The notes under the pieces were generated by a model. That model was not told the DNA's origin and made no database searches. It was given only the letters and a program-made list of their open reading frames with translations. Made by a program: the position numbers and the translations under genes. From Alphaproteobacteria bacterium (lineage in GTDB: Bacteria > Pseudomonadota > Alphaproteobacteria > SP197): a stretch of 64,000 nt of DNA. Location: assembly GCA_965228895.1 (NCBI GenBank), contig OZ245842.1, positions 672,001-736,000 on the forward strand, read 5' to 3'. Positions 1,914-27,230 of this stretch are shown here, piece after piece (within the stretch, counting starts at the first letter, position 1; every line of letters begins with the position of its first letter).

Positions 1914-1935
1914 CCGCGCACGCGGCAGGTGATTT

Positions 1936-4419: not shown

Positions 4420-5901
4420 TCAGGGTGCGACAAACAGGGCTGGTGTCGCCGTTTGCGCGAGATCATCACCGATGTCGGCAAGCATAGCCACGGTCCGCCG
4501 TATGTCGTCTTCCGTGGTGCGCGGGTTGATTGTGCAAAGGCGCAAGACCGTTTGACCACGCAGTTCCGTCGATGTCACGACCGCCTCACCGCTGGCCAGG
4601 ATGGCACGCGCGATGTCACGGTTGATACCGTTGACCATGTCGTGGCTCATCTGTTCGTTGCCGGTGTAGCAGAACGTCACCACGCCGAGGCAGGCCGGCG
4701 ACGTCAGAGTTAACCGGGCATCGCTGTGGATCTCGGCCTCTGCCAGCTCGGCGAGCTCAATGCCGCGGTCGACGGCTTGTTTGACGGCGTCCAGACCGAA
4801 ACATTGCAGGGTCATCCATAGTTTTAACGCGCGGAAACCACGGCTTAGCTGGATGCCGTAATCGCAGAAGTTGACCTCGCCGCCCTCGGTCACCGTGTCT
4901 TGCATGTAGTCGGCCTCGACCTTGAAGGTGTCGGCCAAGAGCATTTTGTCGCGCACCAGGACCGCGCCGATTTCGAACGGCTGAAACAACCACTTGTGGG
5001 GATCGAGCACGAGCGAGTCGGCGTGGGAAAGGCCATCCAGCAGTTGGTCCGAACGGTTACCGAGTGCCGCGGACGCGCCATAGGCGCCGTCGATGTGGAG
5101 CCACATGCCGGTCTCACCGCAAAAATCGGCGAGCGCGTTCATCGGGTCGACCGCACCGGTGTTGGTGGTGCCCGCATTGGCAACGACGCAGAACGGGCGG
5201 CGTCCGCTTTCGCGATCCTCGTTGACGGCGCGGCGGAGGCTCGCCGGATCGAGCCGGAACGCATCATCGCAATCGAGTCGGCGCAGCTGGTGTTTGGCAA
5301 ACCCGAGCAAAAAGAGCGCCTTGTCGACGGATGCGTGAACCTGATCGGAGCAATAAACAACCGCATCGTCTGTCTTGTCGTTGAGCACGGCGTGTCGGGC
5401 GACCGCCAACCCCGTCAGGTTGGCGACGGAACCGCCACTGACAAACAGACCGCCGGCGCCATTGGGAAGACCGGTCATCCGGCACATCCATTCGATCATG
5501 GCGAGCTCCAGCGATGCCGGACCGGAACTCTCAAGCCAGGAGCCCGTGAAGACGTTGAAGCCGGATGCCAGTGTGTCGGCAAGCACGCCATAGAAATTGC
5601 TCGGGCCGGGTACGAACGCGAAGTAGCGCGGATGGTTACACAGCAGGCTGTTGCCGAAGACATCGCGCTGAACCTGTTCGAGCACCTGATCGAACGGGCG
5701 GCCTCTCGCGGGTGGTTCGCCGGCAAAGAGCTTCGCGAGCTCGTCTTGATCGCCGACATGGCCGACGGGCTCGTCCTTGAGCGTGGCGAGATGGTCTACC
5801 ACGGCATCGATAGCGGCATGCCCATCGGTCCGCATGCGTTCAAGGTCAGGTTCGAGCCGCTTGTCGGCACCTGATGGTGGGGGAGCCGCGCGGTCGTTCA
5901 T
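4420..5901 (-). CDS. Group II PLP-dependent (aromatic L-amino acid-type) decarboxylase
   Basis: HPRYFAF, SGGS.AN, GTTNTGAVD, HIDGAYG, DPHKWLF (PLP lysine), SRGFRALKLW. Confidence 0.9.
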   Translation of the reverse strand: MNDRAAPPPSGADKRLEPDLERMRTDGHAAIDAVVDHLATLKDEPVGHVGDQDELAKLFAGEPPARGRPFDQVLEQVQRDVFGNSLLCNHPRYFAFVPGPSNFYGVLADTLASGFNVFTGSWLESSGPASLELAMIEWMCRMTGLPNGAGGLFVSGGSVANLTGLAVARHAVLNDKTDDAVVYCSDQVHASVDKALFLLGFAKHQLRRLDCDDAFRLDPASLRRAVNEDRESGRRPFCVVANAGTTNTGAVDPMNALADFCGETGMWLHIDGAYGASAALGNRSDQLLDGLSHADSLVLDPHKWLFQPFEIGAVLVRDKMLLADTFKVEADYMQDTVTEGGEVNFCDYGIQLSRGFRALKLWMTLQCFGLDAVKQAVDRGIELAELAEAEIHSDARLTLTSPACLGVVTFCYTGNEQMSHDMVNGINRDIARAILASGEAVVTSTELRGQTVLRLCTINPRTTEDDIRRTVAMLADIGDDLAQTATPALFVAP

Positions 5902-7355
5902 GAAGCGGTACCCAGGATGTCATCGAGCCGTGCTTTCAAGCCGTCGACCAGGGTGGTCGCGCCGGCCTCGTGCCACATGTCGACATCGGAGCGGGCAAAA
6001 AGCGACGGCAGCCACATTTCGTTCAGGTAGCGACCATGGGTGTGTTCGTCAGTCAGAAAACTGTTGTCCTGGGCGGCACGGGCGATGACATCGACGGCCA
6101 GGCTGGCTTCATCGACGGTGATTCCGGCGGCAAACCGGCTTGCCATGCCGGCCAATTCGTCGGCCAGCACGAGCATTTCGAGCGAACCGGTCCGTCCGGC
6201 CGAGAGATAACCGAGATTGTGCACAAAGGAGGTGCCGGAGAGGACCGCTGTCGTCATGTTCGACGCAGCCTCGGCCGCAGCCTGTTGATCGACCACATGG
6301 GCATCGCTGCAGCCGGCCGCGACCCAACTGGGCAGGCCGAGATGGGCGAAGAACTCGGCGGCACCGAGCCCGGCCTGGCTATACTCCGGCGACCCATAGG
6401 CGAGATCGGCGCGGCGCATGTCCATAGGCAGGATCGCCGTGCCGGACATCAGCGGCGCGCCCGGCCGCTCGTCCTGATGAATAACCAGACCGGCCAAGGT
6501 CTCTGCCGTCGATTGGGCAATCGATCCGGCCAATGTGATCGGCCCGGACATGCCGGGAAAAAGCGCGGGATAGCAGACGATCGGCAGGGACAGGCGTGCG
6601 GCGTCGCGTAATCGGCGGCAGGTCTCGCTTCCCAGCTTCAGGGGCGACACCGGTCCGACCAGATCAATGCCGGTGGGCTTGTCCGCGAGCGCATCGTCGC
6701 CGCCGGCGATGTCACTTAGATGACGCCAGATACGCCGGGTGACCGTCTCGTCATGGCCGGTAAACGCGACCGGCTTGACGGTGTTCTCGACCAGGGTGCT
6801 GACGGTAATGACGGCTTCATCCTCCGGCGGCACGTCGCTTGGAAAACCGAGGGATGCCGCGACATCGATATTGGCCAGGGCTTCACAGACCTTGCCCGTG
6901 GCGGCGATGTCGTCGAGAACGCATGGCCGGTGCTCGCCGGTGCGATGGTCGAGGGTCTTGATGCAGTTAACCCCTGGGCCGAAGCGCGGCACCGCGTCCG
7001 ACGTATCCATCGCCAGGCGCCCGTTTCGGTCGTAGAGCATGACGTTGGAGGGCGCGCTCTCCAGCGCTGCCTCGACAAGATCGGTCATCATCAGCAACCG
7101 CCCGGCATCGCCTTCGCGGCAGCCTGGCCGCGCCAGCAGGATATCCCGGGTCTCATCATCTTCGACGATGACTCCGACCTTCTCCAGGATCGCAAGCGTC
7201 GCCGCACGCAACAGGTTGAGGTCACTCTCGTTGAACAGCCGCAGGCGCAGGGTCGTGGCAAAGCGGCTGGCCGGTGGCGGTGTTTCCTTTTTGCGACGTC
7301 GCCTCCGAGGCTGCGCCTCCGGTGCTTGTTCGATACCGGTTTGTTGTACGGTCAT
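5898..7355 (-). CDS. Trimethylamine methyltransferase (MttB) superfamily protein, non-pyrrolysine
   Basis: P.TLAG..AQ..AE.LAG, MDMR..D..YGSPE, SDA...DQQAA and HN.GYL..G...SLE motifs; no in-frame TAG. Confidence 0.88.
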   Translation of the reverse strand: MTVQQTGIEQAPEAQPRRRRRKKETPPPASRFATTLRLRLFNESDLNLLRAATLAILEKVGVIVEDDETRDILLARPGCREGDAGRLLMMTDLVEAALESAPSNVMLYDRNGRLAMDTSDAVPRFGPGVNCIKTLDHRTGEHRPCVLDDIAATGKVCEALANIDVAASLGFPSDVPPEDEAVITVSTLVENTVKPVAFTGHDETVTRRIWRHLSDIAGGDDALADKPTGIDLVGPVSPLKLGSETCRRLRDAARLSLPIVCYPALFPGMSGPITLAGSIAQSTAETLAGLVIHQDERPGAPLMSGTAILPMDMRRADLAYGSPEYSQAGLGAAEFFAHLGLPSWVAAGCSDAHVVDQQAAAEAASNMTTAVLSGTSFVHNLGYLSAGRTGSLEMLVLADELAGMASRFAAGITVDEASLAVDVIARAAQDNSFLTDEHTHGRYLNEMWLPSLFARSDVDMWHEAGATTLVDGLKARLDDILGTAS

Positions 7356-7951
7356 GCTGCCGTTGTCCCACCGCCATAGCGGCCGATGGTCTCCCCGCCG
7401 ATCTGAATGCCAAGGGCGTTGATGATGCGCGCCCAGTAGGCAAAGCAGGCGGCGGCCTGGGCGGTCTCCAGGATCTCGACATCGCTGGCGCCGGCATTGC
7501 GGGCCGCAGCGACGTCCTGTTCCGTCATGTCGCCGGGAGTTTGGTTCAGCTTGTGGGCATAGGTGACGAGGGCGGCGAGCTTGGCGTCCAGAACATCCGC
7601 GTGCTTGCCGGCGACGGTGGCATCCAGCATGGCGTCCGCCTTGGCAGCGTCACCGACCAGGTCGCGCAGGTTGGCCGCGTGATGGGTCGTCGCGTAGTGG
7701 CAGTCGCAAAGCCGCGCGACCATGGTGCCGACCAGTTCCAGGAACCAGTCGGGCATGTCGCTGTCGGGATTGTGGAGAATGGCGCGGTAGTGGCCGTCGG
7801 CCCACAGAATGGGCTCCGGCCGCAACGACATCGCCTTATAAAGATTATGCACGGAACCGTCCGCACGGCGGATCTTTTCATACGTCTCGGCAAGAGCGCC
7901 CTCGGCGTCCTCCGGTTCTACGACATCGAGCCAACAGATCGCTTCGGCCAT
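7352..7951 (-). CDS. AhpD/CMD-family peroxidase-related protein
   Basis: ELVGTMVARLCDCHYATTHH and C-terminal FAYWARIINALGI; GGGAGG RBS before ATG 7951. Confidence 0.8.
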   Translation of the reverse strand: MAEAICWLDVVEPEDAEGALAETYEKIRRADGSVHNLYKAMSLRPEPILWADGHYRAILHNPDSDMPDWFLELVGTMVARLCDCHYATTHHAANLRDLVGDAAKADAMLDATVAGKHADVLDAKLAALVTYAHKLNQTPGDMTEQDVAAARNAGASDVEILETAQAAACFAYWARIINALGIQIGGETIGRYGGGTTAA

Positions 7952-8040
7952 GGCACAGTTCCTCCCGGCGGCCCGCCTGGACTCCCTGGCCGGCGGGCTC
8001 TGATCCGTCAGCCTAAGAACCGATCCGGTCACCCGTCAAG

Positions 8041-8054
8041 ACTGTGATCACAGT
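8041..8054. promoter_or_regulatory. Operator palindrome ACTGTGATCACAGT (site 1 of 4)
   Basis: Perfect 14-bp palindrome; on the minus strand it is followed by CTTGAC, upstream of the AhpD-mttB-decarboxylase operon. Confidence 0.75.
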
Positions 8055-8062
8055 TTTGCGGA

Positions 8063-9133
8063 TCAAAGGCCGATTTCCCAGCACGGCTCGAAGGCGCGGG
8101 CGGCGCCGGCATGGCTGTCGCGCAGGGCAACCATGTCGTCACGGTCGAGAAACGCAAACCGGCCGTCCTGCCACAGGGGCTCGCCTTCGAACGTGATCGT
8201 GGCGTCGATCAGCACCGGTGAGATTTCGCCCGGCGGGTAGTCGCCGCAGGTATGAAAATGTGTATAGCGCGGGCTGTTGAAAGCGACCGTGCCCCAGCGG
8301 GTCAGCGAGTCGGCGACGCGCTGGTCGTACCACGTCTTCGGGTGGATGCCTGCGTGCCAGGAATGGACGTTCCGGCCGTCGATTCCGAACAGCCCGGCGA
8401 CGTAGTCGTAATGGTTCTCGACTCGTTTGGCCTCGGGCCCGGTGAAGCCTGAGATACGGCCGCCGTCGATCTCCAGAACGACCGGTTCATCGACGACGAA
8501 TCCGGCGGGCTCATAGACCCGGTTGAGCGTCGGGCTGATCCAGCGTGTCGCCAGGCGTCCAGCCATGTCGCCGGCGCCGAGCGGGCGGAAAACCCCGATG
8601 GGGAACAGTCCCACGGTGAAATCGCCGTCCTGGCTGTCGGGTTCGAACGGCGCTGACGTGGCCTCAAGATCGGTGCCCATGGGGCATGTGATGTGCCAAG
8701 TGCCGCCCTTCGCGATGCGCTTGTTGAGACGGTCCAGGACATCGGCCATCAGGCCGTGGGGCACCCGGCAGAAGTCGGATCCCAACAGGTCGAGATTGAG
8801 CGCGTAGGTCATGGTTTTGCTGCAATGGCCGGGCGTCTCGCAGAACCGGAACTGATCGCCGATCCGGGCGAAAAAGACCGTGTGATCGACCGCCTGCATG
8901 GCCTCGGCCACCGAATCGGGGAAGTGTTGCGGGCCATCCAGGGCGGGCGCCATCAGGGTTTCGGCCTGGCATCCGATGTCTGCTGCAACGCCGCTCACAA
9001 AGTCAGCGACCGACGGATCGTAGTCATCGCCACCGTCGCTCTTCACCACCAGCACGCGGTCGCCGGCAGCGGCCCCAATACAGGCCTGAAGCAGGTTGAG
9101 AGCGCCGGCCTCGGCCCTTGCCTGATTATCCAT
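8063..9133 (-). CDS. Conserved hypothetical protein, M29 aminopeptidase/NicX-like fold
   Basis: ITCP.GTDL, PV.LEI..GRI, SWHAGIHP and HFH motifs; AAGGAGG RBS before ATG 9133. Confidence 0.55.
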   Translation of the reverse strand: MDNQARAEAGALNLLQACIGAAAGDRVLVVKSDGGDDYDPSVADFVSGVAADIGCQAETLMAPALDGPQHFPDSVAEAMQAVDHTVFFARIGDQFRFCETPGHCSKTMTYALNLDLLGSDFCRVPHGLMADVLDRLNKRIAKGGTWHITCPMGTDLEATSAPFEPDSQDGDFTVGLFPIGVFRPLGAGDMAGRLATRWISPTLNRVYEPAGFVVDEPVVLEIDGGRISGFTGPEAKRVENHYDYVAGLFGIDGRNVHSWHAGIHPKTWYDQRVADSLTRWGTVAFNSPRYTHFHTCGDYPPGEISPVLIDATITFEGEPLWQDGRFAFLDRDDMVALRDSHAGAARAFEPCWEIGL

Positions 9134-9159
9134 GGCACCTTGCCTCCTTATCATCGGAG

Positions 9160-9177
9160 AATCTGTGATCACAGATT
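9160..9177. promoter_or_regulatory. Operator palindrome AATCTGTGATCACAGATT (site 2 of 4)
   Basis: Perfect 18-bp palindrome in a divergent intergenic region, overlapping TTGACA at 9176-9181. Confidence 0.8.
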
Positions 9178-9218: not shown

Positions 9219-10475
9219 ATGACCGGCTACTCCTTCTTTCGCCTCGCGGCAAGCGCCTTGGGCGTCGCCCAATCCGACGGTCCCGTCTTCGGTCGAGCGG
9301 TGCCCAAGCCGCGCTATGACGTGGTCATCGTCGGTGGCGGCGGTCATGGGCTGGCGACCGCGTACTATTTGGCCAAGCAACACGGCATCACCGATGTCGC
9401 GGTGATCGAGAAGGGCTGGCTCGGCGGCGGCAACACCGGACGCAACACCACGATCGTGCGCGCCGACTATCTGTTGCCGGGCAACCGGGAATTCTTCGGC
9501 CACGCGCTTGCCATGTGGCCCGGTCTGTCGCGCGAGCTCAACTTCAACATCATGTTCAGCCCGCGCGGTTATCTCGATCTCGCCCACACCGACGGCCAGC
9601 TCGACCACTTCATCCGCCGCGCCAACGGCTTGCGGCTCAACGGCATCGAGGCGCGTATTGTCGACCTCAAGACCTTGCGCGACTTGGAACCGGCCCTGGC
9701 GATCGGGCCGGAGCCGCCGGTCCCGGTCCTCGGTGGCTTGGTGCAGGACGGTGCGGGAACCGCGCGCCACGATGCCGTGGCCTGGGGTTATGCGCGCGGT
9801 GCCCACGGGCTCGGGGTCGACATCGTTCAGAACTGCGAGGTCACCGGCTTCAAGTTCGCGAGCGGGCGCATCGCCGGTGTCGAGACCGATCGCGGCACCA
9901 TCGCGACCGATACGGTCGTGGTCTCCGTCGCCGGTCATTCCAGCCGGGTAGCTGCCTTGGCCGGCCTTGCCCTGCCGATCGAAACCTACGCGGTGCAGGC
10001 CTTTGTCAGCGAACCGCTGAAGCCCGTTCTGCGGCGCGTCACCAACATGAATATCGGCTTTGCCTATGCCAGTCAGACCGACAAGGGCGAGATCGTCATG
10101 GGCGGCAACCTCGAGCCCTTGGCGAGCTATGCCCAGCGCGGCAGCATCGTGCGCGTCGGTGAGGTCGCGGCGAAGCTGGTGCACATCCTGCCGTTCCTCA
10201 GCCGCGTGCGCCTGATGCGCGCATGGAGCGGCATCGCCGATATCGCGGCGGACGGCAGCGCCATCGTCGGACCGACGCCGGTCGGCGGCCTCTATCTGAA
10301 CGCCGGATGGGGGTACTCGGGCTTCAAGGCAACGCCGGCGGCGGGCTGGTGCATGGCCCACACGGTGGCGAGCGGCAAGCCCCATCCCCTAATCGAACCT
10401 TTCTGCCTTGACCGGTTCGCGACCGGTGCCCTGCTCGACGAAGGCGGCACCGGCCCCTACACCTGGCTGCACTGA
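9219..10475 (+). CDS. soxB: Heterotetrameric sarcosine oxidase / N-methylglutamate dehydrogenase family beta subunit
   Basis: GGGGHGLATAYYLAK, GGGNTGRNTTIVR, ARHDAVAWGYA and GFKATP motifs. Confidence 0.88.
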   Translation: MTGYSFFRLAASALGVAQSDGPVFGRAVPKPRYDVVIVGGGGHGLATAYYLAKQHGITDVAVIEKGWLGGGNTGRNTTIVRADYLLPGNREFFGHALAMWPGLSRELNFNIMFSPRGYLDLAHTDGQLDHFIRRANGLRLNGIEARIVDLKTLRDLEPALAIGPEPPVPVLGGLVQDGAGTARHDAVAWGYARGAHGLGVDIVQNCEVTGFKFASGRIAGVETDRGTIATDTVVVSVAGHSSRVAALAGLALPIETYAVQAFVSEPLKPVLRRVTNMNIGFAYASQTDKGEIVMGGNLEPLASYAQRGSIVRVGEVAAKLVHILPFLSRVRLMRAWSGIADIAADGSAIVGPTPVGGLYLNAGWGYSGFKATPAAGWCMAHTVASGKPHPLIEPFCLDRFATGALLDEGGTGPYTWLH

Positions 10476-10484
10476 GGCCGCGCG

Positions 10485-10742
10485 ATGCTGATCATCCCTT
10501 GCCCCTGGTGCGGCGCGCGCGACGAAAGCGAGTTCAGCTATGGCGGTACAGCGCAACCCCTGCCACCGCTCGATGCGGACGCCGCTGCTTGGCAGCGCGC
10601 ACTTTATGTCCACGACAATCCCAAGGACTGGCACGAGGATCTGTGGTTTCACGCGTTCGGTTGCGAACGCTGGTTTGTCGTGCGCCGCCACACGGTGACC
10701 CAGGAGATCGCCGGTAGCGCACCGCCGGGGAACCGGCCATGA
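10485..10742 (+). CDS. soxD: Sarcosine oxidase family delta subunit
   Basis: CPWCGARDESEF.YGG, WFH..GC and RHTVT zinc motifs. Confidence 0.92.
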   Translation: MLIIPCPWCGARDESEFSYGGTAQPLPPLDADAAAWQRALYVHDNPKDWHEDLWFHAFGCERWFVVRRHTVTQEIAGSAPPGNRP

Positions 10743-17372: not shown

Positions 17373-18326
17373 CTACTTCGGATGCCTAATGCGCGGGCTG
17401 GCGATTAGCGACACAATGTCCGCCGCCATGTTGAGCACCACATAGGTCGAGCAGAAGATCATTGCTGCGGCCTGGACCAGCGGAATATCGCGTGTTGTCA
17501 CGCCCTCGACCATCAGCTTGCCGACGCCGGGGAAGTTGAACATGGTCTCGATCACCACGATGCCGCTGATCAGGTAAGCGAGATTGAGGGCGACCACGTT
17601 GACGATTGGCGCGATTGCGTTGGGCAGGGCGTGGACCAGGATGATCCGCCATTTCGGCACGCCCTTCAGAATCGCCATCTCGATCGGCGACGACGTCAGG
17701 ACATTCAACACGGCGCTGCGCGTCATGCGCGCCATATGCGCCATCACGGTGAAGGAAAGCGCGGTGACCGGCAGGGCCAAGACACGCGCATACTCCATGA
17801 ACCCGTCGACCCGGTTCAGATTGGCAATGGCCGGCAACCAGCCGAGTTGGACGGCAAACAGAGACACCAGCAGGACGGCGATGAGAAAATCCGGCACCGA
17901 GATGAGCGCCAGCGTCGACGTCGAGATCAGCCGGTCGGTCGTGCCGTTGGGCCGGGTCGAGGCAATAAGCCCCAGCATGATCGAAAGCGGCACAGCGATG
18001 GCAGCCGTTACCGATGCCAACAGGACGGTGTTGCCGATACGCTCGCCGATGACCTCGTTCAGGTCGGCGCCGTTGGCCAACGAGGTGCCGAGATCACCGC
18101 GTAGCAGGTCAGCCAGCCAGGCGAGGTAACGCAGATAAGCGGGTTCATCGAGGCCAAGCCGCTCGCGGATGTTGGCGACCAGTTCCGGCGTCGCGCCCTG
18201 ACCCAGGATCGCATAGGCAACGTCGCCGGGCAGGATTTCGGTGCCGGCAAAGACCAGGATCGAGACGATAAGCACGGTCAGCACACCCAGACCCAGGCGC
18301 TGCAACACGACACCGAGGATGGTCAT
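17373..18326 (-). CDS. ABC permease (DppB-like)
   Basis: PGD.A..ILG, GDLGTS, HALPNA and IET.FN.PG.G. Confidence 0.95.
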   Translation of the reverse strand: MTILGVVLQRLGLGVLTVLIVSILVFAGTEILPGDVAYAILGQGATPELVANIRERLGLDEPAYLRYLAWLADLLRGDLGTSLANGADLNEVIGERIGNTVLLASVTAAIAVPLSIMLGLIASTRPNGTTDRLISTSTLALISVPDFLIAVLLVSLFAVQLGWLPAIANLNRVDGFMEYARVLALPVTALSFTVMAHMARMTRSAVLNVLTSSPIEMAILKGVPKWRIILVHALPNAIAPIVNVVALNLAYLISGIVVIETMFNFPGVGKLMVEGVTTRDIPLVQAAAMIFCSTYVVLNMAADIVSLIASPRIRHPK

Positions 18327-18437
18327 GGGAGACGGTTTCCGGTCATCGGAAGCATGGCATCAACGAGTACCATGAACGGGCCGCCGCGAGAGCACTCTCC
18401 CGCGGAGGCATAGCGTTCAGGCTGAGACCCGATGCCT

Positions 18438-20036: not shown

Positions 20037-20098
20037 GGATGCCTCCCCTTCGTCACGGTTGGCCCCGTGGGGGCCATGGTTTCCCATTTACGTCAAAC

Positions 20099-20108
20099 TG
20101 TGATCACA
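20099..20108. promoter_or_regulatory. Operator TGTGATCACA (site 3 of 4)
   Basis: Minus strand reads TGTGATCACAGTTTGAC upstream of the ABC-gntR operon. Confidence 0.75.
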
Positions 20109-20173
20109 CATTCTAGGCGCTTGCTGGAACGATTCAAGGCCGCTTGATCACCCGGCCTGCCCGTCGGAGCAAA

Positions 20174-21730
20174 TCACGCCCCGGTTCGCGCGATCTCCTC
20201 CTTGCGCTGCGCCATGTAGTCGCGCAGTTCTTCGTCGATCGCCGGGTCGAGGGCCGGCGGCTCATAATTTGCCAACAGCGATTTCCAGATGCTGTTGGCG
20301 CGCTTGGCGGTGTCTTCGGAACCGCGCTCTTTCCAGCTCTCGAAGTTGTCCCAGTCCGACAAAAGCGGTGCGTAGAACGCATTTTCGTAACGCGCCAGCG
20401 TATGAGCCGCGCCCAGGAAGTGGCCGCCGGGGTCAACCTCGGCAAACGCGGCGGCGCCTAGTTCGTCGGGGCTTGTAACGATCGGCACCAGGGTCTCGGC
20501 CATCATCTGCAGCATCTCGGCGTCCAGGATCAGTTTCTCGAACGAGCAGACGAGGCCGCCCTCGAGCCAGCCGGCGGCGTGCAGAACCAGATTCGTGTGG
20601 GCGAGAATGCAGCCCCATAACGACATGCCACTCTCATAAGCAGCTTGGCCGTCGACAGCCTTTGACGCGGTCGTGTTGCTGGAGCGAAAGGCGCAGCCGT
20701 AGCGGCGTGCCATCTGCGCCGTCGCCAGAGTCAGTTTGACGTATTCGGGTGTCCCGAATGCGGGCGCGCCGGTCTTCATGTCGACATTGGTGGCGAAGTG
20801 ACCGTAGATCACCGGCACGCCCCGTCGTACCGCCTGAACCAGCACGGCGCCCAGCAGAAATTCGGCGTTCTGCTGGACCAGCGTAGCGGCCAGGGTCGCC
20901 GGGCTCATGGCACCGGCCAGCGTGAACGGGGTCAGGCAAACCGGCTGTCCAAGCCGCGCCAGCTCTATCATGCCCTCGGCCATGGCGCCGTCCAGGACCA
21001 GCGGCGAGTTGGTGTTGACGCCCGACATGATGGTCGGTGTCGCGGCCAAGGTGTCGTGATCCATGCCCAAACCGATGCGCGTCATCTCGAAGACATCGCG
21101 GGCGCGCGGGCCGCTGTTGAGCCAGCAAGGATGCCATGACTTATCGGTCAACGTGATCTGCGCGTACATCATGTCCATGTGACGCGATTCCGGCGGCAGA
21201 TCGAGCGGTTCGAAACCGGCGCCGCCGTCGAAATGCAGAATATTGAGCGACTGGACCAGGCGCACGACATCGCACATCTCGCGATAGGTGCCGGCACGCC
21301 GGCCGTTGTCGAGATCGCTGACGAACGAGGGGCCGCAGACCGATGCGAAGGTGATGGCATCGCCGCCGACCTCGATCGACTTGGCGGGGTCGCGGGCGAT
21401 CGCCGTGTAACCGCCAGGCAGGCCGGTCATGGTTTCGTCGATCAGTGCGGGATCGAACCTGACCCGGCCGTCCTCGTCGTCGACGTCCGCTCCCAGGCAG
21501 CGCAGGTGATCGCGTGACGGCGGATCCAGCACGACCATGCCGACATCGCGCAGCAGGTCGAGCGAGGCGCGATGAATGTCCTCGATCTGGTCATCGCTCA
21601 AGATCGCGACCGGCGGATAGGGATTGCGGACGGTCTTGAACGGTATCTGCGCGATGGTGTCCTGGTCCTGGCGGCGCCGGTTGCGTCGATCACGGCCGCG
21701 CTGGCGGACTTTACCTGTCGATGCACCCAT
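20174..21730 (-). CDS. Trimethylamine methyltransferase (MttB) superfamily protein, non-pyrrolysine, alphaproteobacterial type
   Basis: NTNSPL..D, TPFTLAGAMSP, NVDMKTGAPAFGTPE, RSSN and HAAGWLEGGL..SFEK. Confidence 0.92.
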   Translation of the reverse strand: MGASTGKVRQRGRDRRNRRRQDQDTIAQIPFKTVRNPYPPVAILSDDQIEDIHRASLDLLRDVGMVVLDPPSRDHLRCLGADVDDEDGRVRFDPALIDETMTGLPGGYTAIARDPAKSIEVGGDAITFASVCGPSFVSDLDNGRRAGTYREMCDVVRLVQSLNILHFDGGAGFEPLDLPPESRHMDMMYAQITLTDKSWHPCWLNSGPRARDVFEMTRIGLGMDHDTLAATPTIMSGVNTNSPLVLDGAMAEGMIELARLGQPVCLTPFTLAGAMSPATLAATLVQQNAEFLLGAVLVQAVRRGVPVIYGHFATNVDMKTGAPAFGTPEYVKLTLATAQMARRYGCAFRSSNTTASKAVDGQAAYESGMSLWGCILAHTNLVLHAAGWLEGGLVCSFEKLILDAEMLQMMAETLVPIVTSPDELGAAAFAEVDPGGHFLGAAHTLARYENAFYAPLLSDWDNFESWKERGSEDTAKRANSIWKSLLANYEPPALDPAIDEELRDYMAQRKEEIARTGA

Positions 21731-21808: not shown

Positions 21809-21824
21809 AACTGTGATCACAGTT
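21809..21824. promoter_or_regulatory. Operator palindrome AACTGTGATCACAGTT (site 4 of 4)
   Basis: Perfect 16-bp palindrome between divergent mttB and TMADH-like genes; minus-strand TTGAC just upstream. Confidence 0.8.
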
Positions 21825-21859: not shown

Positions 21860-23950
21860 ATGACATCGAGTTCACCTTCATCGACGTCGCGCGATCCGCG
21901 CTATGACATTCTGTTCGAACCGGTTCAGATCGGTCCGGTGACCGCGAAGAACCGTTTCTATCAGGTTCCTCATGCGACGGGCACCGGTTCGGCGATGCCG
22001 AACACCCGTGCCGGTATCCGCGAGGTAAAGGCCGAGGGCGGTTGGGCTGTCGTATGCACGGGCTATTGTTCCATCCATCCGACGTCGGACGACCGCCACT
22101 ATCCGTTTTCCAGCCTATGGAACGATGCCGATATCAACGCGCAGGCGGTCATGGTCGATGCGGTTCACCGCCATGGCGCGCTGGCCGGCGTCGAGCTGTG
22201 GCACGGCGGCGGCGTGGTCGCCAACAAGGTGACGCGTGAGTCGCCGATTTCGCCGTCCGGCCTTGGCGAGCCGGTCTGGGTGACCCACCCCATTCAGCCG
22301 CGCGCCATGGACAAGGCCGATATCGACGACCTGCTGACATGGCAGAAAGAAGCCGCCCTGCGGGCGCGCTCGGCCGGGTTCGATATCGTCTATGTCTACG
22401 CCGGCATGGGTTACCTGCCGTTCCAATTCCTGGTGTCGCGCTACAACAAACGCACGGACACCTATGGCGGTACGTTCGAGAACCGTGCCCGGCTGTTACG
22501 CGAGATGATCGAGGTGACGCGTGATGCGGTCGGTCCGGACTGCGCCGTCGCCGTTCGTTTGACCGCCGAGGAGAATATGGGCGCCCAAGGTTTTCGAGGC
22601 GAGGTCGAGGGCGAGGCGCTGCTCGACCTGATCGGCGACATGCCGGACCTGTGGGATGTCAAACTGGGGTTCACCGGCGATGGCGTGACCTCACGTTTTG
22701 CCGATGAGGCCTATCACGAGCCCTTCGTGCGCTACGTCAAGGCCAAGACCGGGAAGCCGGTTGTCGGTGTCGGCCGTTTTACATCGCCCGATACCATGGT
22801 GCGCCAGATCAAGAGTGGCGTGCTCGACCTGATCGGCGCGGCGCGGCCGTCGATCGCCGACCCGTTTCTGCCCCAGAAGATCGAACAGGGCCGGATCGAC
22901 GAGATCCGCGAGTGCATTGGCTGCAACGTCTGTGTCGCGACTTATGCGGAAGGCGTGCCGATCCGCTGTACCCAGAACCCGACCATGGGCGAGGAATGGC
23001 GACGCGGCTGGCATCCCGAACGGATCGCGACGCGCGGCAGCGACGACAGCGTGCTGGTGGTCGGGTCGGGGCCGGCAGGCCTGGAATGTGCGCGCGCGCT
23101 GGGCCAACGCGGCTATGACGTGACATTGGCCGAAGCAGGTGGTGAGCTCGGCGGACGCGTGACCAGGGAAAGCCGTCTGCCGGGCCTGGCCGCCTGGGCA
23201 CGCGTGCGCGACTGGCGGCTGGGCCGGCTCGACACCATGCCCGGCGTCGAGATCTATCGCGACAGCCGCCTGACCGCCGCGAATGTCGTGGAACTGGCGC
23301 CCCAGCGCGTTGTGCTGGCGACCGGCGCGCGTTGGAAGACGGAACTGCCTGAAGGTCTGGAAGGCGTGCCGGAGATCGCGTCCGGCATCACCGTCATGAC
23401 ACCCGATGATGTCATGGACGGTAGGGCGCCATCCGGCGACGTCCTCGTCCTGGATTTGGATCCCTACTACATGGGCGGCGTGATCGCCGAAAAATTGGCG
23501 CGTGACGGCCATGCTGTCCGCCTTGTCACGCCCAACACGGCGATCTCGCCATGGACGGCGCTGACCGAAGAACAGCATCGGATCATGGTTCGCCTGCTGG
23601 AACTCGGTGTCGATGTCGTCACGACCCATCATCTGCTGGGCCTCGACGGTGGCGGCGCTCGCATCGCGTCCGTGTACGACGGCAAGGTACAGGCGTTGCC
23701 TTGCGACACGCTGGTCCTCGTCGGCACCCGCGCACCGGTCGACGGATTGGCGCGCGCGTTGGAGGAACGCAGCGGCGATGTCGCGGCCGCGGGCATCCGT
23801 GACATCACGCGCATCGGTGATGTTTATGCCCCCGGCGCGATTGTCCACGCTGTCGCGTCAGGTCACCGCTATGCACGAGAACTGGATGCCAACGATCTCA
23901 CCGTACGCATCGAACCGGGTGGCGGCTCCTATGAAGCAAGGAGGGTGTGA
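21860..23950 (+). CDS. Trimethylamine/histamine dehydrogenase-like flavo-iron-sulfur oxidoreductase
   Basis: DILFEPVQIGP...NRFYQVPH, KAEGGW, AARPSIADPF and CIGCNVC...CTQN 4Fe-4S motif; EEWRRGWHPE. Confidence 0.9.
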   Translation: MTSSSPSSTSRDPRYDILFEPVQIGPVTAKNRFYQVPHATGTGSAMPNTRAGIREVKAEGGWAVVCTGYCSIHPTSDDRHYPFSSLWNDADINAQAVMVDAVHRHGALAGVELWHGGGVVANKVTRESPISPSGLGEPVWVTHPIQPRAMDKADIDDLLTWQKEAALRARSAGFDIVYVYAGMGYLPFQFLVSRYNKRTDTYGGTFENRARLLREMIEVTRDAVGPDCAVAVRLTAEENMGAQGFRGEVEGEALLDLIGDMPDLWDVKLGFTGDGVTSRFADEAYHEPFVRYVKAKTGKPVVGVGRFTSPDTMVRQIKSGVLDLIGAARPSIADPFLPQKIEQGRIDEIRECIGCNVCVATYAEGVPIRCTQNPTMGEEWRRGWHPERIATRGSDDSVLVVGSGPAGLECARALGQRGYDVTLAEAGGELGGRVTRESRLPGLAAWARVRDWRLGRLDTMPGVEIYRDSRLTAANVVELAPQRVVLATGARWKTELPEGLEGVPEIASGITVMTPDDVMDGRAPSGDVLVLDLDPYYMGGVIAEKLARDGHAVRLVTPNTAISPWTALTEEQHRIMVRLLELGVDVVTTHHLLGLDGGGARIASVYDGKVQALPCDTLVLVGTRAPVDGLARALEERSGDVAAAGIRDITRIGDVYAPGAIVHAVASGHRYARELDANDLTVRIEPGGGSYEARRV

Positions 23951-23953
23951 ACC

Positions 23954-25201
23954 GTGGCCTATGCTGACCCCTTCCATGTTGCCAAGAAAACGCCGGGTGC
24001 CGGACTCAAGGATTTCGAGCCGCAGATCGACATGCACCGCATGCGGCGCTACCGCCTTGACCGCGTGCGCCAGGAGCTGGCACGGCGCGATATCCCAGCC
24101 TGCGTACTCTATGACATGGCGAACATCCGTTATGCGACCGGCACCCGAAACATGGCGGTCTTCACCGGGCACTATCCGACACGTTATGTCTTCGTCGCCG
24201 CCGATGGACCGGTCATTCTGTTCGACAACGAATCAGGCCCGAGCCCGGCTGACTTCTCCGGTACCGTCGACGAGCTGCGACCCGCCAAACAGTGGTATTA
24301 CGAGGCTCATGGCGAACATGTCGCCGACGCGGCAAAAGCCTGGGCCGACGAGATCAACGATCTCTTGAGTCAGTTTGGCGGCGCCAGCCGCCGGCTCGCC
24401 GTCGATCGGCTGGGCGCCATGGGTTTCGTGCCGCTGGCCGCCCATGGCATCGAAATTTGTGACGGCCAGGCAGTGCTCGAACTGGCGCGGGTCATCAAGT
24501 CGCCCGATGAAATCGCCTGCATGTGCGTTTCGGTCGCGGTTTGCGAGATTGGCGTCGCCCGCATGCGCGAGGCCATGCGGCCCGGCATGTCGGAGCAGCA
24601 GCTCTGGTCTGTCATGGCCAACGTCAACAACGAGATGGGCGGCGAGTGGATGGAGACGCGGCTGCTGACGTCCGGCGGCCGCACCAATCCGTGGTATCAG
24701 GAATGCGGCGAGAAACTGATCAGGAGCGGCGAGCTTGTCGCCTTCGACACCGACATGATCGGGCCGTTCGGCTATTGCTGCGACATCTCCAGGACCTTCC
24801 TGTGCGGGCCGTCGAAACCGACCGATGAGCAGAAACGGCTCTACGGCTTGGCCCATGCGCAGGTCGAACACAACATCGCGCTTCTGAAACCCGGCGTAAC
24901 ATTCCGCGAACTCAGCGACCAAGGCTTCAAGGTGCCCGACGCGTTCTTAGCCAATCGCTATTCCTGTTTGATGCACGGTGTCGGCCTGGTCGACGAATAT
25001 CCGGACGTCGTCCATCCGCTCGATTGGCACGAATTCACCGCCGATGGTGTGATCGAGGAAGATATGGTCCTGAGTGTCGAAAGCTATATCGGCGAAATCG
25101 GTGGCTCCGAAGGCGTCAAGCTGGAAGAGCAGGTTCTGGTGACCGCCGATGGTGTCCAGCGCCTCTCCATGTTCCCCTTTGAGGACGACCTGCTGGCATG
25201 A
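23954..25201 (+). CDS. M24 metallopeptidase-fold protein, DddP (DMSP lyase)-like
   Basis: GGEWMETRLL.SG.RTNPWYQEC, FDTD, DISR, HGVGLVDEYP and VKLEEQ motifs. Confidence 0.85.
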   Translation: MAYADPFHVAKKTPGAGLKDFEPQIDMHRMRRYRLDRVRQELARRDIPACVLYDMANIRYATGTRNMAVFTGHYPTRYVFVAADGPVILFDNESGPSPADFSGTVDELRPAKQWYYEAHGEHVADAAKAWADEINDLLSQFGGASRRLAVDRLGAMGFVPLAAHGIEICDGQAVLELARVIKSPDEIACMCVSVAVCEIGVARMREAMRPGMSEQQLWSVMANVNNEMGGEWMETRLLTSGGRTNPWYQECGEKLIRSGELVAFDTDMIGPFGYCCDISRTFLCGPSKPTDEQKRLYGLAHAQVEHNIALLKPGVTFRELSDQGFKVPDAFLANRYSCLMHGVGLVDEYPDVVHPLDWHEFTADGVIEEDMVLSVESYIGEIGGSEGVKLEEQVLVTADGVQRLSMFPFEDDLLA

Positions 25202-25863
25202 CCTACCGCCTCTACCTCGCACCCAATACCTACGCCTTGACGGTCCAAGCGTTGCTCGAGGAACTGGCCGTGCCCCATGAGCTCGTCTGGGTCGGGATCT
25301 TCCAGGACACACCGGACCCGGTGCTCCAAGAGCGCAGCCCCCATCTCAGGGTTCCCGCGCTGGAAGGCGATGGTCTCGTCGTTGTCGAAACGGGTGCAAT
25401 CGCGCTCTATGTCGCCGAACGTCACGGTGACGGCGCGTTAGTGATCCCGCCAGGCGAACCCGACCGGGCGCGATTTCTGCAGTGGCTGCACTACCTGGCG
25501 AGTACGCTCCAGCCCGATGTCTTGATCCAGTTCCATCCGGAGTTCTATGCCGAGGACAAGCCGACGCAGGATCGGATCATGAAGGCGTCAATGGCGCGCC
25601 TGGAAGGTGTCTTCGATGTGCTCAATGACGCGCTTGATCCCGGCCCATATTTTTTTGGCGAGAGACTGACGGTGCTCGATTTTCTGTTCGGCATGCAGGC
25701 GACGTGGCCGGAAATCTATCCGCGCCCCATTGAGGCTTATCCCAACCTGCTGCGCCACCAACAGACCATGCTGGCACGCACGGCGGTGCGCCGAACGCTT
25801 GACATTCACGCCGCCAAACTGCGCGAGCAGGGGCGGTCATTGGAGCTGGCGCTGCCACTTTGA
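25198..25863 (+). CDS. Glutathione S-transferase family protein
   Basis: P..RVPAL, ETGAI..Y, FLQWL and YFFGE..T..D. Confidence 0.88.
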   Translation: MTYRLYLAPNTYALTVQALLEELAVPHELVWVGIFQDTPDPVLQERSPHLRVPALEGDGLVVVETGAIALYVAERHGDGALVIPPGEPDRARFLQWLHYLASTLQPDVLIQFHPEFYAEDKPTQDRIMKASMARLEGVFDVLNDALDPGPYFFGERLTVLDFLFGMQATWPEIYPRPIEAYPNLLRHQQTMLARTAVRRTLDIHAAKLREQGRSLELALPL

Positions 25864-25907
25864 CAAGACACCCCTGGCTGCGGCGCACAACGAGGGAGAG
25901 ACCCGCG

Positions 25908-27230
25908 ATGGCATCCAATCTGCGTTACACCGGCTATTACGAAACACAAGACGCCGGCATTGACGAGGAACTCGCGCGGGTCGGCCGTGGGACGCCATGC
26001 GGCGAATACATGCGCCGCTTCTGGCACCCCGTCGCCATGACGTCCCAGGTCAAGGACGTGCCGCTTCTGATCCGTCGCTTCGGCGAGGACCTCATCCTGT
26101 TCCGCGATAAGCAGGGACGTTATGGGCTGGTGCATCGCCACTGCCCCCATCGCAACGCGTCGCTGGAGTACGGCATCCCGACCGAATGTGGCATCCGTTG
26201 CTGCTATCACGGCTGGCACTTCGACGTCGACGGCACGTTGTTGGAAGCGCCCGCCGAGGCCGATGATACGAAAATCAGGCAGCAAGTGCGGCTGGGCGCC
26301 TATCCGGTGCGCGAGTACCGTGGCCTCGTCTTCGCCTATATGGGTCCGCCGGAGGAGGAGCCGGCGTTTCCGATCTACGATACCTTCGAGATTGAAGACG
26401 GCGAGCTCGTCCCTTACGAGGTCACGCAGCCCTGCAACTGGCTGCAGATCGCCGAGAACTCGTGCGATCCCATGCATGTCGTCTTCCTGCACACGCGCGT
26501 CAACATCGTGCAGTTCACCGAAAAACTGGGCTATTGGCCGGTCATGGACTGGCGCGAACGCCCGATCGGCCTGTTCTATACGAAGGCGCGGCGGGTCAAC
26601 GATTACATCTGGATCTCGACCAACGACGTCATCCTGCCGAACTTCACCCAGGCCGGCGCGGTCTATGAGAACACCGACGGTACCGAACCCAAATACTTCG
26701 GCCGCTGCTCGTTCACCCGCTGGGTCGTGCCGATCGACGACACGCATACGACAATTCTGGCCTACCGCCATTTCAACAAACGCGCAGAGACCGCGCGCGA
26801 CGAATGGCGGACGCCCGAGGCACTCGAGAAGATCGACATCGGCGAGTTGAGGAGCCGCCCCTACGAGGAACGCCAGCGCAACCCCGGCGACTACGAGGCG
26901 TTCGTCGGTCAGGGACCGATCTCACCGCACAAACGTGAGAACCTCGTGACATCCGACAAGGGTGTCGCGATGTACCGCCTGCGGCTGCGCAACGAGATCA
27001 AGAAACTCCAGGCCGGAGAGGCACCTCTTCAACCGGCGGCCTACGTCGATAACCCGATCCCGACCTATGGCAGCGACACGGTCATTCGCTTGCCGGAGTC
27101 AGACGACGACGAGGACGCGATTGCGGCGCTGCAACGCAAGGTCGGCGATGTCTACGAGTCGGCGGACAAGATCAAAGGAGAGGCCCGCTACGACTATCTC
27201 GCCGAACACCTCGCGCTGCTCAACACCTAG
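25908..27230 (+). CDS. Rieske non-heme iron oxygenase alpha subunit (phthalate dioxygenase/LigX-like)
   Basis: GTPCGEYMRRFWHP; Rieske CPH...CCYHGW; mononuclear iron EN..DP.H..FLH. Confidence 0.9.
   Translation: MASNLRYTGYYETQDAGIDEELARVGRGTPCGEYMRRFWHPVAMTSQVKDVPLLIRRFGEDLILFRDKQGRYGLVHRHCPHRNASLEYGIPTECGIRCCYHGWHFDVDGTLLEAPAEADDTKIRQQVRLGAYPVREYRGLVFAYMGPPEEEPAFPIYDTFEIEDGELVPYEVTQPCNWLQIAENSCDPMHVVFLHTRVNIVQFTEKLGYWPVMDWRERPIGLFYTKARRVNDYIWISTNDVILPNFTQAGAVYENTDGTEPKYFGRCSFTRWVVPIDDTHTTILAYRHFNKRAETARDEWRTPEALEKIDIGELRSRPYEERQRNPGDYEAFVGQGPISPHKRENLVTSDKGVAMYRLRLRNEIKKLQAGEAPLQPAAYVDNPIPTYGSDTVIRLPESDDDEDAIAALQRKVGDVYESADKIKGEARYDYLAEHLALLNT

Follow-up and report, generated by a model that had tools for sequence, protein, structure and literature searches.

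A putative GntR-controlled regulon for the import and N-demethylation of an onium compound in an alphaproteobacterium

The window analysed in this study comprises 64,000 nucleotides of an alphaproteobacterial genome (assembly GCA_965228895.1, contig OZ245842.1, positions 672,001 to 736,000 of the forward strand). At 4420..27230 it carries a set of 18 genes for which the comparison of sequences supports a single regulon under one GntR-type operator, conserved across taxa. The function of this regulon is probably catabolic: under repression by a GntR protein, it would import an N-methylated onium compound and strip its N-methyl groups in a stepwise manner. The genes are arranged in four strand blocks, according to the listing of open reading frames (ORFs) combined with Pfam and NCBIfam scans. 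Block A (minus strand) encodes a NicX-fold protein, an AhpD/CMD-like protein, MttB1 and a decarboxylase, with overlapping stop and start codons among the last three genes. Block B (plus strand, 9219-14187) consists of soxB, soxD, soxA and soxG. Block C (minus strand, 14159-21730) encodes MttB2, a family-5 periplasmic binding protein, two permeases, a fused ATPase and a GntR/FCD regulator, and block D (plus strand, 21860-27230) a trimethylamine dehydrogenase (TMADH)-like flavoprotein, a DddP-like M24 enzyme, a glutathione S-transferase (GST) and a Rieske oxygenase. A first-pass annotation, made from the letters of the sequence, had counted about 18 genes and named most of these families; the scans recovered all of the named families at about the places assigned to them.

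The palindromic operator and its presumed repressor

The palindrome CTGTGATCACAG occurs in the gene set as three exact copies, at 8042..8053, 9163..9174 and 21811..21822, and once with a single mismatch (CTGTGATCACAC), at 20098..20109, where it precedes the start of the binding-protein gene by 62 nt. None of the four sites lies within a gene, in agreement with the earlier proposal that the promoter regions of the set share an operator. The three exact copies are the only ones in the whole genome (5,528,408 bases). One-mismatch sites number seven genome-wide, one of them inside the cluster, and a control with the reversed pattern gave one site. When up to two mismatches were allowed, the window contained four sites, a count not above that in shuffled sequences (mean 2.3); the significance of the operator lies, therefore, in the exact copies and their locations. 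One site is found in each of the divergent regions, between the NicX-like gene and soxB and between the MttB2 and TMADH-like genes. The other two are placed in gaps inside the blocks, one separating the NicX-like gene from the CMD-like gene that it precedes and the other ahead of the binding-protein gene. The four strand blocks may thus be split into up to six transcription units, which is the number suggested by the first-pass annotation. The position of the copy at 8042 is also occupied in the same-genus locus L007, and that of the copy at 21811 in the same-genus locus L111.

Between 4300 and 24000 there are four sigma-70-like hexamer pairs, every one within an operator-bearing intergenic region, and shuffled sequences also give four. 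Three of the four abut or overlap the operator; one ends at 20110, and hexamers are present on both strands around the site at 21811. The pair 9154-9125, probably a spurious one, coincides in part with the ribosome-binding site of the NicX-like gene. The hexamer pairs are thus weak support.

The regulator encoded at 14159..14866 (minus strand) combines a winged-helix GntR domain with an FCD effector domain (both recognised by Pfam), and the palindrome found in its own regulon is of the GT-n-AC type. From the sequence, this protein is presumed to be a repressor acting at the palindrome. The link between the two was followed in 80 related loci (1.38 Mb), which were collected around members of the NicX-like family and include up to 10 kb of flank on each side. 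They contain eight exact copies of CTGTGATCACAG, versus approximately 0.1 expected by chance, spread over L007, L018, L057, L059, L065 and L072; by the blast criteria given below, a GntR homologue is encoded in all of these except L065. Together, the palindrome and GntR homologues (36-92% identity) were observed in the window, L007, L008, L018, L057, L059, L072, L114 and L117. Sites equivalent to the copy at 9163, located between soxB and the NicX-like gene, are present in L007, L057, L059, L114 and L117.

Conservation of the core in marine bacteria

Homologues of the window genes in the flanks of the 80 loci were counted with blastp (E <= 1e-10, query coverage of 50% or more), and the numbers are raw counts. 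The most frequent neighbour of the NicX-like gene is the CMD-like gene (43 loci), followed by the genes for the family-5 binding protein (28), MttB (24) and the permeases and ATPase (17). Homologues of soxB and soxD were found in 14 loci, of soxA in 11, of the GST in 10, of the Rieske protein in nine, of GntR in six, of the M24 enzyme in two and of the decarboxylase in one. The MttB count includes 13 loci with proteins of the MttB1 type at an identity of at least 48%. At the same level, TMADH-like homologues are encoded in L018, L007 (two copies), L028 and L029. Clustering of ORFs revealed further families in the flanks: VanA-type Rieske proteins in 13 loci, HalD-like proteins in 12, PhyH in 10, creatininase and LacI in eight each, and other 2-oxoglutarate (2OG) oxygenases and GbcA-like Rieske proteins in six each. 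Rieske proteins of all types are encoded in 22 of the 80 loci, and oxygenases of the 2OG/PhyH/HalD group in 17. Of the 59 loci with a length of 15 kb or more, 50 have at least one demethylase or oxygenase family, which is again a raw count. The type of demethylase is interchangeable among the related clusters (MttB, GbcA-like or other Rieske proteins, dimethylglycine dehydrogenase (DMGDH)-like and TMADH-like enzymes), while SoxBDAG is kept. This fits the logic of import and N-demethylation put forward in the first-pass annotation.

Two minimal modules may be distinguished. In Roseobacters, the module consists of the genes for the binding protein, LacI, the NicX-like and CMD-like proteins and MttB1. 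In Granulosicoccaceae and Halioglobus, the module comprises an ABC importer, a HalD-like protein (sometimes with PhyH), CMD-like, GST and NicX-like proteins, with a binding protein 61-64% identical to that of the window; over Roseobacter plasmids and Granulosicoccaceae, orthologues of the binding protein are 56-64% identical. The carriers are overwhelmingly marine. Many are metagenome-assembled genomes (MAGs) from groups associated with sponges or invertebrates, among them Poriferihabitaceae, Granulosicoccaceae, Arenicellales, Geminicoccaceae and a symbiont of Bugula; the rest include Woeseiaceae, Roseovarius, Ruegeria spongiae and Hoeflea.

A tblastn search of plasmids located the NicX-like gene on 12 replicons of Roseobacter or Paracoccus strains, isolated (where the source is given) from ark shell, coral, Bugula washings and biofilms. 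Two cultured bacteria, Alisedimentitalea scapharcae KCTC 42119 and Leisingera thetidis BMJM1, carry the cluster on plasmids. In both, genes for a Rieske protein, soxG-like, soxA, soxD and soxB are followed by the NicX-like and CMD-like genes, then by GST and the binding protein, and finally by GntR, the permeases, the ATPase and a DMGDH-like protein (approximately 799 aa). The A. scapharcae plasmid additionally has a PhyH gene behind the CMD-like gene and a gene of the MttB1 type (51% identity) between those of the GST and the binding protein; on the L. thetidis plasmid, a racemase gene lies behind the DMGDH-like gene. Identities to the window proteins are 56-58% for the binding protein, 43% for GntR, 63% for the permeases and 62% for the ATPase. 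The gene order described here is that of L114 and L117, whose GSTs are 50-51% identical to that of the window. On each plasmid, CTGTGATCACAG is found four times without mismatch: twice in the interval separating soxB from the NicX-like gene, once between the genes for the binding protein and GntR, and once upstream of the permease genes. A further copy, with one mismatch, lies beside the binding-protein gene. The palindrome is absent from the LysR-regulated versions of the cluster in Paracoccus seriniphilus and Ruegeria conchae.

In the same-genus genome G001, the whole set is distributed over two contigs with the operators in place, and the identities reach 92% for MttB2, 85% for both the TMADH-like and M24 enzymes, 79% for the GST and 91% for the Rieske protein. 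A megablast search of the 22.8-kb region against plasmids returned short conserved pieces only. The regulon is genuine and old; as judged from the sequences compared, its core appears to consist of sox, the NicX-like, CMD-like and GST genes, MttB1 or a Rieske gene, the importer and GntR; MttB2, the TMADH-like and M24 enzymes and the decarboxylase would be additions of the lineage. In the synteny check suggested in the first-pass annotation, the core and the operator recurred in unrelated marine genomes, and the full set was found only in the same genus.

The decarboxylase, a group II enzyme dependent on pyridoxal phosphate (493 aa, 4420..5901, minus strand; Pfam Pyridoxal_deC, PF00282, 228 bits), is the last gene of its operon, and its start overlaps the MttB1 stop. 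Its best NCBIfam match is diaminobutyrate decarboxylase, at 229 bits versus a cut-off of 900, and no equivalog cut-off was reached. In the PDB it comes closest to tryptophan decarboxylase (4obu, 326 bits), then to tyrosine and DOPA decarboxylases. The single locus among the 80 in which it accompanies the NicX-like gene comes from the same-genus genome, and decarboxylation as a core step, as proposed earlier, is not supported.

Enzymes predicted to remove the N-methyl groups

MttB1 (485 aa, 5898..7355, minus strand) and MttB2 (518 aa from the ATG at 21730; 20174..21730, minus strand) are members of the MttB superfamily (quaternary amine:corrinoid methyltransferases) without pyrrolysine, as had been noted earlier; they are only 23-25% identical, and neither ORF has an internal stop or in-frame amber codon (table 11). 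MttB1 is divergent, with 225 bits against the Pfam MTTB model (PF06253, cut-off 25) versus 616 bits for MttB2. In the PDB, MttB2 matches 4yyc (353 bits) and MtgB (2qne/9yce, 296 bits). According to a JBC study of 2026, Y97 and F356 of MtgB are cation-pi partners of the quaternary nitrogen, R312 and H348 bind the carboxylate, and R312 is conserved across all MttB members of known function (PMC13080624). At the positions of Y97, R312, H348 and F356, alignment to 2qne/9yce places Cys, Arg, His and Gly in MttB2, with a Trp four residues past the His, and Val, Trp, His and Gly in MttB1, with a Tyr four residues past the His. The Trp in place of R312 is present in all 14 proteins of the MttB1 clade aligned with MAFFT, and Arg is kept there in 13 of the 18 MttB paralogues of the genome.

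The genome encodes a single stand-alone corrinoid protein, at 2.99 Mb (G000:C1, about 2,994,457-2,995,167), beside an MtgB-like MttB, DUF1638 and two MTHFR genes. The MttB paralogue adjoining it has Phe, Arg and His at the ligand positions, which is compatible with MtgB. This arrangement agrees with the model of a shared MtgC in aerobic marine bacteria (PMC12478193). In the locus itself (L118, G000:C1:2979001-2999000), the MtgB-like gene is divergent from that of the corrinoid protein (B12-binding_2 and B12-binding domains), which is followed by DUF1638 and the two MTHFR genes; two more TMADH/DgcA-like genes and a cupin-type lyase of dimethylsulfoniopropionate (DMSP; PF16867) are also located there. 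A second sox set at 2.97 Mb, 52% and 44% identical to that of the cluster, lies 20 kb from the MtgB-like locus, and glycine betaine is probably served by these two loci.

The TMADH-like Fe-S flavoprotein (696 aa, 21860..23950, plus strand) belongs to the TMADH/histamine dehydrogenase family and consists of an OYE-like FMN domain and ADP-binding domains. The 4Fe-4S motif Cys-x2-Cys-x2-Cys-x12-Cys is kept (Cys345, Cys348, Cys351 and Cys364). Overall, it scores higher against histamine dehydrogenase (3k30, 708 bits) than against TMADH (1djn, 550 bits), but its pocket is not histamine-like: the TMADH residues Y60, W264 and W355 are replaced by Tyr, Phe and Tyr, whereas both histamine dehydrogenases have Gln, Trp and Asp. 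On account of these residues, histamine was rejected as its substrate. Since the pocket is aromatic and lacks the Gln and Asp, the enzyme is predicted to be an N-methyl dehydrogenase rather than a deaminase of primary amines; the deamination step of the earlier proposal is not supported. In the alignments to 1djn and 3k30, Cys30, the residue forming 6-S-cysteinyl FMN, is replaced by Ala, as in the uncharacterised 6l6j.

The sox genes, of the heterotetrameric sarcosine oxidase family, are ordered B-D-A-G on the plus strand. They encode a beta subunit (418 aa, 9219..10475; Pfam DAO, NCBIfam soxB 547.5 bits, cut-off 529.45), a delta subunit (85 aa, 10485..10742; Pfam SoxD, 96.6 bits), an alpha subunit (989 aa, 10739..13708; Pfam GCV_T, SO_alpha_A3 and Fer2_4, NCBIfam soxA 1155.7 bits, cut-off 1164) and a gamma subunit (160 aa, 13705..14187; NCBIfam soxG 49.7 bits, cut-off 143.95), which is assigned also by its position behind soxA. 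Thus, the NCBIfam cut-off is reached by soxB, narrowly missed by soxA and not reached by soxG, and these models are silent on which N-methyl amino acid is oxidised. The GCV_T domain of the alpha subunit is folate-binding.

The Rieske protein (456 aa, 25860..27230, plus strand; Pfam Rieske and LigXa_C), which is the alpha subunit of a non-haem iron oxygenase, matches PDB 7fhr at 160 bits. The M24 metalloenzyme (415 aa, 23954..25201, plus strand) matches DddP (4rzy) at 314 bits over 388 residues, versus at most 58 bits for prolidases. The residues D295, D297, D307, H371, E406, E421, Y366 and D377 of DddP are kept and W95 is replaced by Phe; six of the kept residues are the ligands of the binuclear metal centre of DddP, and Asp377 and Tyr366 are catalytic there. 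The enzyme scores 384.4 bits against the NCBIfam equivalog NF043017, below the cut-off of 600. The importer is of the Dpp/Opp type, with all its genes on the minus strand: a family-5 binding protein (532 aa, 18438..20036; Pfam SBP_bac_5, 275 bits), a DppB/OppB-like permease (17373..18326; BPD_transp_1), a DppC/OppC-like permease (16518..17372; BPD_transp_1 and OppC_N) and a fused double ATPase (14866..16521; two ABC_tran domains and oligo_HPY). The best PDB match of the binding protein is DppA (135 bits); dipeptide-binding proteins are at the top of the matches and opine binders lower down.

The NicX-fold, CMD-like and GST proteins

The NicX-fold, AhpD/CMD-like and GST proteins are the best-conserved partners of the set. 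The first-pass annotation stressed other genes; these three were counted in it but left without interpretation. The NicX-fold protein (356 aa, 8063..9133, minus strand) starts with an ATG at 9133 behind AAGGAGG and is encoded by one copy in the genome. Single-sequence and profile searches of Pfam, NCBIfam and the PDB gave nothing meaningful. Among 8000 candidates scored, 519 homologues were found at E <= 0.001, and nearly all are unnamed metagenomic proteins. An AlphaFold2 model, built on an alignment of 45 sequences, has a mean pLDDT of 95.2. In Foldseek the first match of this model was NicX (7cn3, E 4.5e-16), followed by M29 aminopeptidases and CgnB/CgnE; VIA-align gave a Z of 24.4 against NicX, with 305 of 348 residues aligned and an rmsd of 3.4 A, and a Z of 16-17 for M29 peptidases. 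The identity to NicX is 15%. Clusters of the ESM Atlas neighbouring the protein bear the NicX Pfam family, and the residues invariant in the family alignment include H261, H293, H295, D311, D94 and R97. Judging from the modelled fold, the protein may be either a dioxygenase or a hydrolase.

Additional copies of the NicX-like gene were noticed in some genomes. L057 and L059 contain two paralogues each in a near-identical gene order, which includes genes for a DoeB-like deacetylase, a type III glutamine-synthetase-like protein and a fusion of an NAD-binding domain with CMD. Since L059 is labelled as a Flavobacteriaceae MAG and L057 as an alphaproteobacterium, the contig may be mis-binned. In G017, a genome of the same family, there are four NicX-like matches (G017:C1:434189-434602 and 2462751-2463799 among them); one fragment is interrupted by two in-frame TGA codons, and another copy is split into two adjacent pieces. 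These are probably decayed copies.

The CMD-like protein (199 aa, 7352..7951, minus strand) is a 'peroxidase-related enzyme' by TIGR01926 (90.4 bits, cut-off 81.8) with a weak match to Pfam CMD. Its ORF extends to 8032, and the start at Met28 was picked by aligning 27 homologues. The GST family protein (221 aa, 25198..25863, plus strand; Pfam GST_N) matches maiA in NCBIfam at merely 26 bits. The NicX-fold, AhpD-like and GST proteins may either transform the remaining skeleton of the substrate or deal with reactive by-products. Sox enzymes release H2O2, and the sox operons of Phaeobacter are located near peroxide-related genes (PMC13381886).

Proposed pathway

In the pathway that we infer, the GntR/FCD protein would bind CTGTGATCACAG at the four promoter regions, and an N-methylated onium compound or its product would relieve the repression. 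This compound, for which an amino-acid derivative with a trimethylammonium group (betaine-type) is the most likely candidate, would be taken up by the Dpp-like family-5 ABC importer. Its first methyl group could be removed by a cobalamin-dependent MttB protein using the single stand-alone corrinoid protein of the genome, encoded elsewhere, with the Rieske oxygenase acting in addition to MttB or in its place. The next methyl would be taken by the TMADH-like flavoprotein (the DMGDH-like enzyme in Roseobacters) and the last one by the folate-coupled SoxBDAG-type enzyme. Finally, the NicX-fold metalloenzyme, the AhpD/CMD-like protein and the GST might act on the remaining molecule or on reactive by-products. 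Stepwise N-demethylation is supported by the trimethylamine-type pocket of the TMADH-like enzyme; the folate domain of SoxA, the conservation of R312 and H348 in MttB2 and the GbcA-like Rieske genes beside the NicX-like gene in other loci point the same way.

A more specific proposal, which we regard as tentative and rather improbable, is a pathway without characterised counterpart for an onium compound typical of marine invertebrates, such as a betaine or thiol-betaine derived from histidine (hercynine, ergothioneine or an ovothiol) or a side-chain trimethylated diamino acid. The NicX-fold protein would then represent a new family of non-haem metalloenzymes acting on the betaine skeleton, and the MttB1 clade, with Trp for Arg, a new specificity for a methylammonium or methyl-heterocycle site without an adjacent carboxylate. 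The AhpD-like protein and the GST would perform thiol-dependent chemistry on the substrate, not mere peroxide defence. The individual compounds are candidates only. For ergothioneine, ovothiol or hercynine speak the GST, the AhpD-like protein and a rhodanese in L018, and against them that no ergothionase-type genes were seen. The decarboxylase and the HalD-like oxygenases of related loci would suit trimethyllysine or other side-chain betaines, the Ldh_2 and RidA neighbours proline or pipecolate betaines, and the creatininase of eight loci creatinine. Homoserine betaine, beta-alanine betaine and arsenobetaine are further candidates.

Known systems and alternative explanations

The pathway proposed above has to be set against the routes already described. 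In Pseudomonas, glycine betaine is degraded by GbcAB, DgcAB and SoxBDAG. The aerobic route of marine Alphaproteobacteria consists of MtgBCD, a dimethylglycine dehydrogenase and SoxBDAG (PMC12478193). It resembles the window in the enzyme classes for removing three N-methyls, in the presumed reliance of MttB on a corrinoid protein encoded elsewhere and in the predicted passage of methyls to folate by way of the SoxA GCV_T domain. It differs in that the window has a Dpp-type importer, a GntR with its own palindrome and two MttB proteins with altered ligand positions, as well as NicX-fold, AhpD/CMD-like and GST genes that have no counterpart there. The homarine route (homABCDER with a Sox-like N-methylglutamate dehydrogenase), spread over Rhodobacterales and Gammaproteobacteria, likewise starts from a marine N-methylated zwitterion, employs enzymes of formerly unclear function and removes the last N-methyl with a heterotetrameric Sox-like enzyme (PMC13236597). 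The window cluster is without the flavin reductase/oxygenase pair or the aldehyde dehydrogenase of the HomA/HomB/HomD kind, and the hom operon, as described there, is without MttB, TMADH-like, NicX-like and CMD-like genes. Identity with the homarine operon was rejected on gene content. The multi-step logic of N-demethylation is already known, unlike the three conserved protein families, the regulator-operator pair and the substrate. A full-text search of the literature, with subscription journals and supplementary files outside its coverage, found no description of the gene set, the MttB1 clade or the NicX-like family, which agrees with the statement of the first-pass annotation that no characterised pathway has these genes.

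Several observations weigh against the proposed import and stepwise demethylation. The flank counts are raw, and nine of the 59 long loci have the NicX-like gene with no demethylase nearby and no common theme. All 18 genes occur together only within the genus, and a second same-genus genome has the NicX-like gene alone in another context. The carboxylate-binding Arg is absent from MttB1, which may therefore not act on an acidic betaine, and the cluster itself has neither a corrinoid protein nor a Rieske reductase gene. The loss of Cys30 implies a TMADH-like enzyme without the covalent FMN link, and its specificity is unreadable from homology, as it is one of 15 close paralogues. In addition, a peptide-like substrate would also suit the M24 enzyme, the M29-related fold and the binding protein with its resemblance to DppA.

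A different arrangement, which we find possible but clearly less probable than a single pathway, is that two pathways are joined under one repressor. The sox genes, the NicX-like and CMD-like genes, MttB1, the importer and GntR would serve one compound, and the TMADH-like/DddP-like/GST/Rieske operon with MttB2 a beta-onium propionate, for instance DMSP or beta-alanine betaine. Elimination by the DddP-like enzyme would yield acrylate and trimethylamine (or dimethyl sulfide), oxidation of the amine would fall to the TMADH-like enzyme, and the GST would handle acrylate or formaldehyde. The six metal ligands of DddP (4rzy, 4b28) are kept in the M24 enzyme along with Y366 and D377, its gene adjoins that of the TMADH-like enzyme with the trimethylamine-type aromatic pocket, and this operon accompanies the core in the same genus only, M24 homologues being found near the NicX-like gene in just two of the 80 loci. 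The genome also holds six further DddP-like paralogues and, elsewhere, MttB and TMADH-like genes side by side. However, the exact operator is common to the operon and the core, the GST of the operon is homologous (50-51%) to that in the core of the Roseobacter clusters, and the M24 enzyme, with W95 replaced by Phe and one of seven paralogues, scores 384 versus the DddP cut-off of 600. The TMADH-like enzyme shares with TMADH (1djn, 2tmd) the architecture, the 4Fe-4S motif and the aromatic pocket; the histamine dehydrogenases used for comparison are 3k30 and 6de6.

The fold of the NicX-like protein raises the question of a heteroaromatic substrate, a pyridinium or imidazolium betaine, which seems unlikely to us. 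An oxygenase would hydroxylate the ring, the NicX-like protein would open it, the GST would be a maleyl-type isomerase and the CMD-like protein a decarboxylase, and Sox would demethylate the released N-methyl amino acid, as in homarine catabolism. Over its whole chain, the protein is closest to NicX (the 2,5-dihydroxypyridine 5,6-dioxygenase of Pseudomonas putida; 7cn3, 7cup), a ring-cleaving Fe(II) dioxygenase, with a Z well above that of M29 peptidases. Oxygenases of many types accompany its gene (Rieske in 22 of 80 loci, 2OG/PhyH/HalD in 17), and a GST with a decarboxylase-family protein is typical of ring-cleavage routes. Homarine catabolism ends with N-methylglutamate oxidised by a Sox-like enzyme (PMC13236597). 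Nevertheless, identity to NicX is only 15%, with no sequence-profile match, and homA, homB and homD, as described there, are all absent here. The GST, with its 26 bits to maiA, is not clearly of the zeta class, no other genes of the nic pathway were seen in the window, and the DMGDH-like, TMADH-like and MttB proteins suggest several N-methyls on one nitrogen. Still less likely, in our opinion, is the catabolism of a peptide or opine. Either an opine from marine invertebrates or a di- or oligopeptide with N-methylation would then enter through the Dpp-type importer, with the M24 and M29-related NicX-fold proteins serving as peptidases and Sox oxidising the secondary amine. The dipeptide-binding proteins at the top and the opine binders lower down among the matches of the binding protein, the peptidase clans M24 and M29, the invertebrate origin of the carriers and the polar-amino-acid ABC importers with AstE-like deacylases in some related clusters are consistent with it. 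The match to the NicX fold is, however, clearly better than that to M29 peptidases, the M24 enzyme is specifically DddP-like (314 bits versus at most 58 for prolidases), and no role would be left for MttB, the TMADH-like, the GbcA-like Rieske and the DMGDH-like proteins. An ordinary locus for glycine betaine, dimethylglycine and sarcosine is very improbable. The enzyme classes would fit the known three-step route from an MttB-type or Rieske enzyme through a TMADH/DgcA-like one to SoxBDAG, but a separate locus has the MtgB-like paralogue, the corrinoid protein, DUF1638 and two MTHFR genes, with the second sox set 20 kb away. The importer is of the Dpp type rather than the OpuA/ProU type, MttB2 has Cys at Y97 and MttB1 Trp at R312, and the conserved NicX-like, CMD-like and GST proteins have no role in that route. 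The import and stepwise N-demethylation of another onium compound is the reading that we prefer.

Neighbouring genes and paralogues in the genome

The genome holds 18 MttB genes and 29 matches to the TMADH-like enzyme overall, 15 of them at an identity of at least 48% (14 beyond the cluster), and the cluster is accordingly one of many such specialised loci. There are also seven DddP-like M24 genes, 14 family-5 binding proteins, eight group II decarboxylases and three sox sets. MttB and TMADH-like genes adjoin each other at approximately 0.60, 0.95 and 1.84 Mb. The region G000:C1:1790000-1848000 contains three decarboxylase paralogues (one of them 48% identical, beside a PotD-like binding protein), a DddP-like gene (55%) and adjoining MttB (50%) and TMADH-like (56%) genes, and may represent a sister pathway.

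A PotD/PotF-like family-8 binding protein (27579..28775, plus strand; Pfam SBP_bac_8) is a possible extra member of the set. Its gene lies 3' of the Rieske gene also in the same-genus locus L111 (92% identity), and a pattern scan for CTGTGATCACAG found no operator ahead of it in the window. Directly upstream of the set there is a homogentisate-type cluster with genes for MarR, hmgA, FAH, an MBL-fold protein, an FAD monooxygenase (541 aa) and a GST (L110 15325-16692 and window 15-4392). These adjacent genes, which the first-pass annotation had suggested as the recipients of an arylacetate product, are real, but the link has found no support: the same scan detected no GntR operator in the cluster, and in G001 the homogentisate genes are not adjacent, the decarboxylase gene being followed instead by two TMADH-like genes and one for a PotD-like binding protein. 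Further away, at L110 600-11450 (G000:C1:655600-666450), three S-Me-THD-like (DUF917) genes, two Asp/Glu/hydantoin racemases, a flavin reductase, an ABC importer and LacI resemble a hydantoin-type catabolic cluster. On the other side, the window at 28797-34471 contains a second GntR/FCD gene with an SDR, an enolase-superfamily (MR_MLE) enzyme, an HpcH/HpaI aldolase and a thiamine pyrophosphate enzyme, resembling a separate acid-sugar-type cluster.

Conclusions

Methylated amines and betaines constitute a large share of the labile nitrogen and carbon in the sea. The routes of their breakdown are still emerging, the homarine and aerobic MtgBCD routes having been published only in 2025-2026. The most likely function of the gene set described here is the uptake of a methylated ammonium compound and the removal of its N-methyl groups, and the set recurs in bacteria associated with marine invertebrates. 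The regulon and its operator span an alphaproteobacterial chromosome, Roseobacter plasmids and gammaproteobacterial genomes; sponges, bivalves, corals and bryozoans are the source of many of the carriers. The operator is shared by two carriers that are in culture, which makes the system directly testable. The identity of the inducer would give a function to a distinct MttB clade and to a family of NicX-fold proteins that counts hundreds of members in metagenomes, and it would name a host-derived nutrient sustaining the symbionts.

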